DNA of 64,000 nucleotides, taken from Algoriphagus sp. (GTDB lineage Bacteria; Bacteroidota; Bacteroidia; Cytophagales; Cyclobacteriaceae). A model generated the notes under the pieces. That model had not been told where the DNA came from, made no database searches, and saw only the letters and a list, made by a program, of their open reading frames with translations. The stretch covers positions 62,366 to 126,365 of the forward strand of contig NZ_JAUXYL010000013.1 of assembly GCF_030694375.1 (NCBI RefSeq). Direction: 5' to 3'. Positions 40,420 through 41,046 of this stretch are shown here, in pieces; position 1 is the first letter of the stretch; each line of letters starts with the position of its first letter. The position numbers and the translations under genes were made by a program.

Positions 40420-40483
40420 CAGAGTATAGCGTAGCCCGATATCGCGTCCCGATTGCGATCGGGAAGGTCTCAGGTTCGAATCC
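40420..40483 (+). pseudogene. Degenerate tRNA-Pro copy with the anticodon arm replaced by a REP-like hairpin; acceptor and T stems broken
   Basis: D arm and variable/T-loop segments match the intact tRNA. Positions 27-43 are replaced by TCCCGATTGCGATCGGGA. Homology ends after GAATCC. Confidence 0.8.
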
Positions 40484-40532
40484 CTCAATTGGCAAAAGTG
40501 CTGATTGAAAAATAAAGTAAAATTAAAGTCTT

Positions 40533-40606
40533 CGGGGTGTAGCGTAGCCCGGTATCGCGCCACATTTGGGATGTGGAGGTCGTAGGTTCGAATCCTGCCA
40601 CCCCGA
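40533..40606 (+). tRNA. tRNA-Pro (TGG)
   Basis: Full cloverleaf: acceptor CGGGGTG/CACCCCG, anticodon arm CCACA-TTTGGGA-TGTGG, T loop GGTTCGAATCC, discriminator A. CCA not encoded. Confidence 0.97.
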
Positions 40607-40618
40607 CTTAATTTCAAT

Positions 40619-40650
40619 AGCCTTTGGATGAAAATCCAGAGGCTTTTTTT
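40619..40650 (+). terminator. Intrinsic terminator after tRNA-Pro (duplicated at 40787-40815)
   Basis: AGCCTTTGGAT-GAAA-ATCCAGAGGCT followed by a T tract. Confidence 0.8.
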
Positions 40651-40686
40651 ATGCTTTTTTTCCTTCCCATCCTTTTGCTTAATCTG

Positions 40687-40774
40687 AGGGCTGTGGCGTA
40701 GCCCGGTATCGCGTCCCGATGCAGATCGGGAAGGTCCTAGGTTCTCCCGAAAGCTTTCGGGACTGCCACCCTGA
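40687..40774 (+). pseudogene. Second degenerate tRNA-Pro copy with REP-like hairpins in the anticodon arm and T loop
   Basis: GCGTAGCCCGGTATCGCG is identical to the intact gene. Anticodon arm is TCCCGATGCAGATCGGGA, T-loop GAATC is replaced by TCCCGAAAGCTTTCGGGA, and the 3' trailer and terminator are duplicated. Confidence 0.85.
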
Positions 40775-41046
40775 CTTAGTTTCAATAGCCTTTGGATGAA
40801 AATCCAGAGGCTTTTATTGATTTAAAAATCCAAATATCTGTGATTTTCTATGTCAGCTGAGAGAACCCAACAATGCATAATCAAAATCCCTCCTCCACCA
40901 TGCCCTATCATAACCTGCATTCAAAACCAAATCCCTTCATTTTTCAACCCATTCATCAAGTTTTTCACAATTTTTCCGCTACTTAGCCCCTATTTCAAAG
41001 CTTGATTTCTGTAAAATAAAACTTTAAAGAAAATATAATCTAATTC

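Follow-up and report, generated by a model that had tools for sequence, protein, structure and literature searches.

The 64,000-nucleotide stretch of Algoriphagus sp. DNA analysed here (the window; positions 62,366 to 126,365 of contig NZ_JAUXYL010000013.1, assembly GCF_030694375.1) contains, between positions 40340 and 40815, a single transfer RNA (tRNA) transcription unit composed of a promoter, a partial copy of tRNA-Pro (copy 1), the intact tRNA-Pro(UGG) gene, the terminator of this gene, a second tRNA-Pro copy (copy 2) and a duplicate of the terminator. The best explanation we can offer, to which we assign a probability of about 0.55, is that the locus is a working tRNA-Pro gene standing between duplicates whose arms were overwritten by palindromes, and that it is a member without an open reading frame (ORF), or a relic, of a Bacteroidota-wide system of tRNA genes, palindromes and nucleases. 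In this explanation copies 1 and 2 are non-functional partial duplicates of tRNA-Pro(UGG). No published description of palindrome-overwritten tRNA copies was found in the literature on GIY-YIG nucleases and tRNA genes, UPF0213/COG2827, palindromes and partial tRNA repeats.

The alignment of the locus resolves three colinear tRNA-Pro-like units, with the intact gene (40533-40607, + strand) between two dead partial copies. The intact gene is the sole tRNA called by ARAGORN and the only Rfam match of the locus (tRNA, 66 bits); no other RNA family, and no tRNA match in copies 1 and 2, was found in Rfam up to E<=10, and a known RNA family for the copies was dropped on these grounds. Copy 1 (40420-40484, + strand) is of the upstream type: a decayed 5′ acceptor strand, the D arm, a palindrome, the variable segment and the start of the T arm, without the 3′ acceptor strand. 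Copy 2 (40687-40774, + strand) is of the downstream type, a full-length tRNA-Pro copy with two overwritten arms and an ortholog in the related genome G023. In both copies the tRNA positions 27-43, which read CCACATTTGGGATGTGG in the real gene, are exactly replaced by an 18-nt palindrome on the + strand: TCCCGATTGCGATCGGGA (palindrome 1, TCCCGAT-TGCG-ATCGGGA) at 40447-40464 in copy 1, which folds as a 7-bp stem with a tetraloop, and TCCCGATGCAGATCGGGA (palindrome 2, TCCCGAT-GCAG-ATCGGGA) at 40714-40731 in copy 2. The edges of the swap are retained in both cases (...ATCGCG on the 5′ side, AGGTC on the 3′ side). A third palindrome, the perfect 18-mer TCCCGAAAGCTTTCGGGA (40745-40762, + strand), takes the place of the T-loop GAATC of copy 2. 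The pattern TCCCGAT-N4-ATCGGGA has two matches in the window, against zero expected. Five of the seven acceptor-stem pairs form in copy 2 and the 3′ strand is missing in copy 1; neither copy has the paired 7-bp acceptor stem or the 7-nt anticodon loop of a functional tRNA gene. An earlier interpretation based on the letters of the window alone (the sequence-only reading) had described the exact replacement of positions 27-43 in both copies, the preserved D arm side and AGGTC variable segment, the extra hairpin in the T loop of copy 2 and the damaged acceptor stems, all of which the alignment bears out. It had also favoured a block swap over drift by point mutation, in agreement with the exact helix boundaries and with the presence of the same swap, with other loops, in relatives.

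The palindrome consists of a 7-bp stem and a tetraloop. In the genus search, the pattern of which fixed the outer five stem pairs and makes them uninformative either way, the inner two pairs were always complementary (AT..AT or CA..TG). Among 31 different 18-mers collected from the phylum, pair 6 was AU in 18, CG in 12 and UA in one, and pair 7 was UA in 15, CG in seven, AU in six and UG in two, with one cell unpaired; pairs 6 and 7 covary across relatives (AU/UA, CG/AU, AU/CG, CG/CG), and the covariation score observed for these 31 sequences was reached by no shuffle. The loops are free to vary (TGCG, GCAG, AGGA, AGGG, TTCG, GCAA and others). Because the inner stem pairs covary and the loops vary freely, the proposal of the sequence-only reading that the arm forms a 5-bp stem and an 8-nt loop, with U33 and A37 around four bases, is contradicted, and a four-base anticodon in such a loop was rejected.

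The palindrome behaves as a genome-wide module. The pattern TCCCGAT-N3-6-ATCGGGA is present in 22 copies in this Algoriphagus genome (G000) and in zero copies in the control. Its abundance differs between genomes (22 copies in A. aquatilis, G019; 13 in G021; four in G009; three in G116), as does that of the variant TCCCGCA-N3-6-TGCGGGA (zero in G000, one in G019, two in G021, 12 in G009 and 15 in G116). The stem variant follows the genome and not the tRNA type, one variant being common to copies of different tRNA types within a genome. Furthermore, the nucleases linked to tRNA-Ala (see below) in G019, G009 and G116 form one clade, and the upstream Ala copies of these genomes carry each genome's own stem variant. 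Since independent double changes at at least eight loci are implausible, the comparison points to copying or homogenisation of the palindromes in trans. These stems, together with a second palindrome, CCCCGATAGCT(AT)CGGGG, are found in dispersed repeats resembling miniature inverted-repeat transposable elements (MITEs); this second palindrome also occupies the T loop of the copy at locus L007, a syntenic locus described below. MITE-like repeats of about 110-150 nt, partly in tandem, lie at 5462-5757 of the window, with TCCCGAT-N5-ATCGGGA (5490-5508 and 5739-5757) and CCCCGATAGCTCGGGG; the genome has roughly a dozen related copies at other places, and some units have no palindrome. The sequence TCCCGATATTTCGATCGGGA has an identical context on the short contigs C28, C30 and C41 of the same genome, and is probably a collapsed multi-copy element. 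A high-copy repetitive extragenic palindrome (REP) was considered and rejected: the exact N6 form numbers only 15 copies over 5 Mb, and wider patterns describe a modest dispersed family.

Partial copies adjoin 9 of the 38 tRNA genes of this genome. The sequence-only reading had anticipated that the swap might extend to other tRNA genes and to terminators, and both were found, the latter in relatives. The downstream copy of tRNA-Arg(ACG) has TCCCGACCACAGTCGGGA exactly replacing the anticodon arm, the anticodon arm of the downstream copy of tRNA-Val(UAC) is swapped as well (TCCCGATGCAATCGGGA), and in the leader copy of tRNA-Met the palindrome replaces the D arm; related palindromes are carried by an Ala copy and by a four-unit Asp array. 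In relatives, the same swaps affect Lys, Ala, Val and Met copies, and palindromes occupy terminator tips and are also nested in other palindromes. The boundaries at positions 27 and 43 are exact in Pro, Lys, Val, Arg and Ala copies. The Asp array (contig C22:223485-223910, outside the window) consists of tRNA-Asp followed by four tandem 91-nt units, each carrying the final 11 nt of the tRNA as well as TCCCGATTCTCGGGA-CAGGCT. At loci L098, L105 and L106 (G009 and G116), intrinsic terminators are tipped by the palindrome of the genome, for example AAAAAAGCCCG-TCCCGCAGAATTGCGGGA-CGGGCTTTTTT.

The same arrangement is found at the syntenic site of relatives. Identity with G023 is 93% over the entire 451-nt region, and L080 (whole) and L007 (part) show the same upstream-real-downstream layout before the Na/Ala symporter gene, with intact 5′ acceptor strands, different loops and different T-loop palindromes. 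The acceptor stem of the L080 ortholog of copy 2 is intact, and the orthologous upstream units of relatives retain an intact CGGGGTG 5′ strand. As the syntenic relatives keep these strands intact, the copies in the window are best regarded as decayed forms of an arrangement that predates these species. The recurrence of the layout in independent assemblies (G023, L080, L007) also removes the concern, raised with the sequence-only reading, that the locus could be an assembly artefact. The anticodon-position and T-loop palindromes of copy 2 (40687-40776) and of its counterpart (L080:2621-2722) are near reverse complements, and a palindrome pair of this type can form one long helix (-52 kcal/mol, z = -5.4 in L080).

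Within the genus, 33 of the 123 genomes have the strict palindrome pattern next to tRNA-Pro, some of them in tandem arrays, such as one of six units with a 110-nt period in A. aquatilis. The same unit precedes tRNA-Pro in records of Parapedobacter, Mucilaginibacter, Flavobacteriales, Maribacter, Cryomorphaceae and Bacteroidales. Outside the genus the unit reads as the 5′ half of tRNA-Pro, TCCCG-xx-loop-xx-CGGGA and AGGTCG, with an acceptor strand that matches the local tRNA (CGGGATG, CGGGGCG). Two unit types recur: an upstream one (5′ acceptor strand, D arm, palindrome, start of the T arm) and a downstream one (palindrome, T arm, 3′ acceptor strand, terminator copy). The exact 18-mer of palindrome 3 is found at the same T-loop site in tRNA-Val copies of A. 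aquatilis (L107), and a distant metagenome-assembled genome has it there in a tRNA-Pro copy (L066). In A. mannitolivorans (G014; L006/L022), the second unit of the array has a hybrid arm, CCACAATTGGGATCGGGA, to which the real anticodon arm contributes the 5′ half and the palindrome the 3′ half, as would be expected if an upstream unit had recombined with the real gene. The GC-rich surroundings of two actinobacterial pattern hits (L089 and L092) offer no tRNA context, and these hits were treated as chance; a phage origin was rejected, the tRNA-Pro palindrome pattern having no match in viral contigs.

Nuclease genes accompany the converted copies at other tRNA loci. In this genome, tRNA-Val and its converted copy enclose an 82-aa ORF that corresponds to a GIY-YIG domain alone (E = 7e-16). 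Four small GIY-YIG ORFs are encoded in the genome, and three of them (76-82 aa), all outside the window, lie directly 3′ of a tRNA gene and run into a converted partial copy: those of tRNA-Val (C9:22657-23260), tRNA-Leu(UAA) (C44:131989-132422) and tRNA-Arg(CCU) (C45:68200-68600). The Leu-linked ORF stops on the TAA anticodon of the copy and the Arg-linked ORF on the TAG formed by tRNA positions 8-10, where the ORFs of such cassettes often stop. The fourth (99 aa; C35:17450-18100) is away from any tRNA gene, between direct repeats of about 50 nt (…GACTGCTTCGCTCGTTCCTCACTCGCAGTGACGC). All these ORFs (76-99 aa) are almost entirely PF01541, with no separate DNA-binding domain. Many related tRNA loci carry a GIY-YIG ORF, which extends into the converted copy at its 5′ end, and relatives have such an ORF separating the working gene from the converted copy at tRNA-Lys, tRNA-Ala, tRNA-Val and tRNA-Pro. 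The nuclease clades track the tRNA type: in a tree of 25 proteins, a small sample that includes near-copies, the tRNA labels change six times, the minimum possible, against a shuffled mean of 14.7. The best solved relative of the ORFs is the stand-alone UPF0213 protein 1zg2 (at a weak E-value of 0.0085), which belongs to the Slx1 lineage of structure-specific nucleases (PMC1564403).

At the tRNA-Pro locus, copy 1 would be transcribed together with the tRNA. A Bacteroidota-type promoter, according to the consensus that we take to apply in this phylum, is located at 40344-40373 (+ strand; TTTG at 40344-40347, 18 nt, and TAtgTTTG at 40366-40373) and is kept in G023. In 22 of 40 related arrays a TAnnTTTG box stands ahead of the first upstream unit, and in only one of 42 is a box found between the unit and the tRNA; the position of copy 1 between the promoter and the intact tRNA, proposed in the sequence-only reading, is consistent with both the promoter assignment and this comparison. 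Copy 1 is followed by a leader hairpin, TCAATTGGC-AAAAGT-GCTGATTGA (40485-40508, + strand), with nine pairs, and then by an A-rich spacer that runs to the tRNA. The hairpin stands in the same place in 12 related upstream units; over 13 distinct units 98.3% of the cells are paired, five pairs are changed on both sides, and the many G.U pairs fit the + strand only. Its role may lie in RNA processing or in the stability of the pre-tRNA leader. Downstream, the intrinsic terminator of the tRNA (40619-40651, + strand) has an 11-pair stem followed by a T run, and its duplicate beyond copy 2 (40787-40815, + strand) has a weakened T run and a stem (40787-40812) identical to 40619-40644. The ORFs flanking the locus encode a MobA-like transferase and a Na/Ala symporter. 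Between the copies, which lie 25-80 nt from the tRNA, there is no + strand ORF of at least 80 aa, and neither an integrase nor cargo; an integrase island was rejected because no ORFs lie there. A frame of 17 codons (40651-40701), closed by the TAG of copy 2, was considered as a deleted nuclease ORF and given no weight, its ATG being missing in G023.

These data can be assembled in the following mechanism. The complete form of the proposed system, seen at other loci, has a stand-alone GIY-YIG gene of about 80 aa between a working tRNA and its converted copy, each nuclease lineage being tied to one tRNA type. Duplication would result from break repair at tRNA genes or from unequal recombination there, which the nuclease may provoke, and the palindromes would be copied in trans into extruded stem-loops, by a structure-directed replacement at the helix bases. 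Palindromes would survive in spare copies only, a hit in the working gene being selected against, and the upstream copy would simply be co-transcribed as leader RNA. More specifically, and tentatively, the writing could be due to a trans-acting process that recognises structure, excises extruded stem-loops (tRNA arms, terminator tips, palindromes) at the helix base and inserts the palindrome of the genome. Stand-alone GIY-YIG nucleases of the Slx1 type, homing to particular tRNA genes, would run this process or take part in it, and the copies in the window would then be its footprints. We hold this specific version with clearly less confidence than the general one.

Several observations weigh against the proposed system. 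The tRNA-Pro locus has what defines the palindrome cassettes, a working tRNA flanked by partial copies with arms replaced by a GC-rich palindrome, but not the nuclease ORF that is found for Val, Leu and Arg in this genome and, among relatives, for Lys, Ala, Val and Pro; no GIY-YIG ORF is present at the locus or at its orthologs in G023, L080 and L007, so that the link with the nuclease is made here by analogy with other loci. The ORF is present in only a minority of the tRNA-Pro loci fetched. Several nuclease lineages in one genome share one palindrome variant, which a separate agent would explain at least as well as the nuclease does. DNA cutting or palindrome writing by these proteins of about 80 aa is putative, and the account does not explain how the working tRNA would escape cutting. 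Finally, the G.U covariation of the leader hairpin hints at selection on RNA.

This last point leads to the possibility that the converted copies are functional RNAs, tRNA-shaped leaders or trailers with a capped anticodon arm that selection would maintain as processing signals, as decoys for tRNA-binding proteins or as regulators of tRNA-Pro output. Upstream units stand between the promoter and the tRNA in many lineages and are found in several orders, their 5′ halves are identical to the real tRNA in most species, the palindrome stem covaries and the leader hairpin shows G.U-rich, strand-specific covariation, all of which would suit a function in RNA. The distribution is patchy, however (33 of 123 genomes of the genus), the acceptor stems are broken differently between species, the parts 3′ of the palindrome are unconserved between orders, and palindromes are also found in terminator tips, in MITE-like repeats and at D, anticodon and T positions without a fixed plan. 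The hybrid unit of A. mannitolivorans shows, moreover, that similarity of the 5′ halves can be maintained by recombination with the real gene. The comparison of G000 with G023 bears on the same question: differences number 53/564 in the whole region, 10/122 in the rest of the two copies, 2/12 in the palindrome loops, 0/42 in the six palindrome arms and 0/75 in the real tRNA. From these differences the bodies of the copies look unconstrained, diverging like spacer, and the palindromes look kept or renewed; about four changes would be expected in the arms at the regional rate, and the chance of zero is about 0.02 by our own arithmetic on a single species pair. We consider functional RNAs rather unlikely. 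The spacer-like rate of the copy bodies would also suit a tandem duplication followed by neutral decay, with hairpins produced by chance or by local quasi-palindrome correction, and tandem partial tRNA repeats are known, as in the 178-bp repeats of E. coli tyrT. Decay of this kind does not lead to one 7-bp stem in unrelated tRNA types of a genome and a different stem in another genome, to exact boundaries at 27 and 43 in copies of five tRNA types, or to an identical 18-mer in the T loops of Pro and Val copies from different species, and we find it hardly credible.

The sequence-only reading had attributed the hairpins to a REP moved by a REP-mobilising enzyme. The palindromes do form a short, dispersed family whose sequence is specific to the genome and which also builds MITE-like repeats, and REP hairpin is a fair descriptive term for them; the enzymatic part of the claim lacks support. 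It would require that a Y1 transposase, either a REP-associated tyrosine transposase (RAYT) or an IS200/IS605 TnpA, targets hairpin DNA, the GIY-YIG genes being bystanders. Eight Y1_Tnp homologues, most of about 187 aa, are encoded in this genome, and one of them, at a contig edge, adjoins a TCCCGAT-N5-ATCGGGA palindrome. Four of the eight genes, though, lack any palindrome of the family within 900 bp, three others have only an unrelated or distant one, and a RAYT flanked by its palindromes was rejected on this count. No constant flanking tetranucleotide of the GTAG/CGTC type was seen by eye (the flanks are CGCG, AGCA, CCTG and others), and the copy number, 22 for the GAT type, is modest. Known Y1 enzymes insert whole elements beside their target and, to our knowledge, do not swap a resident stem-loop length for length, which counts further against them. 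A Y1 agent is therefore improbable in our estimation, more so than functional RNAs. These comparisons single out no writer of the palindromes: the stand-alone GIY-YIG nuclease gene is the better associated of the two and adjoins converted copies, but it is absent from the locus in the window and several nuclease lineages share one variant in a genome, and Y1 genes mostly have no palindrome of this kind beside them.

The proposed system of tRNA genes, palindromes and nucleases resembles several known ones in part. SegB of phages T4 and T6 is a free-standing GIY-YIG homing endonuclease encoded in a tRNA gene cluster (PMC2330249, PMC13096335), and a GIY-YIG endonuclease drives the segmental amplification of tRNA segments in phage T6 (PMC13096335). 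This amplification is the closest experimental precedent for the duplication step proposed here, and the likeness includes a GIY-YIG gene among tRNA genes, tandem amplification of tRNA segments and a widespread association with tRNA genes. SegB differs in being a phage enzyme and not a domain-only protein; no overwritten tRNA copies are described for it, whereas the bacterial proteins considered here are domain-only, of about 80 aa, and absent from the locus in the window. REP/REPIN sequences and their RAYTs share with the present palindromes the short, GC-rich and dispersed form, the genome-specific sequence and the assembly into composite repeats; here, in contrast, the palindromes replace stem-loops of tRNA copies length for length, without a conserved tetranucleotide and with Y1 genes mostly unflanked. 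The small dispersed repeats (SDR) of Nostoc, reportedly the subject of a study by Elhai et al. in 2008 (Genome Res 18:1484), are likewise very small hairpin modules at precise positions with no known enzyme; they are cyanobacterial, and we know of no tRNA-arm replacement or nuclease cassette associated with them. The precise insertion of one of them, SDR5, inside the HIP1 palindrome is cited in PMC4390886.

Two further systems place partial tRNA repeats next to a tRNA gene. The tyrT operon of E. coli carries its 178-bp repeats (RtT RNA, Rfam RF00391) in tandem 3′ of the tRNA. As in the present arrangement, these repeats lie downstream of the tRNA, each carries a part of it and they are co-transcribed; unlike it, they show no palindrome swap, have no sequence relation to the copies described here (which gave no Rfam match) and are a single-species curiosity, compared with a phylum-wide pattern. 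The attL/attR fragments of integrase islands are also direct partial tRNA repeats beside a working copy, but the copies in the window lie 25-80 nt from the tRNA, with no island or integrase in between, and they include 5′ tRNA parts and carry overwritten arms.

If the proposed explanation is true, tRNA genes across the phylum would house a small selfish system by which they are duplicated, and the spare copies would be disabled by the replacement of one hairpin by another, a form of DNA rewriting outside the catalogued mechanisms of mobile elements. The palindrome copies confuse the annotation of tRNAs and small RNAs, add structured leaders to tRNA transcripts and are substrates for recombination around essential genes. 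The genome-specific palindromes and the tRNA-specific nuclease lineages would also be handles for bench tests in laboratory Bacteroidota.

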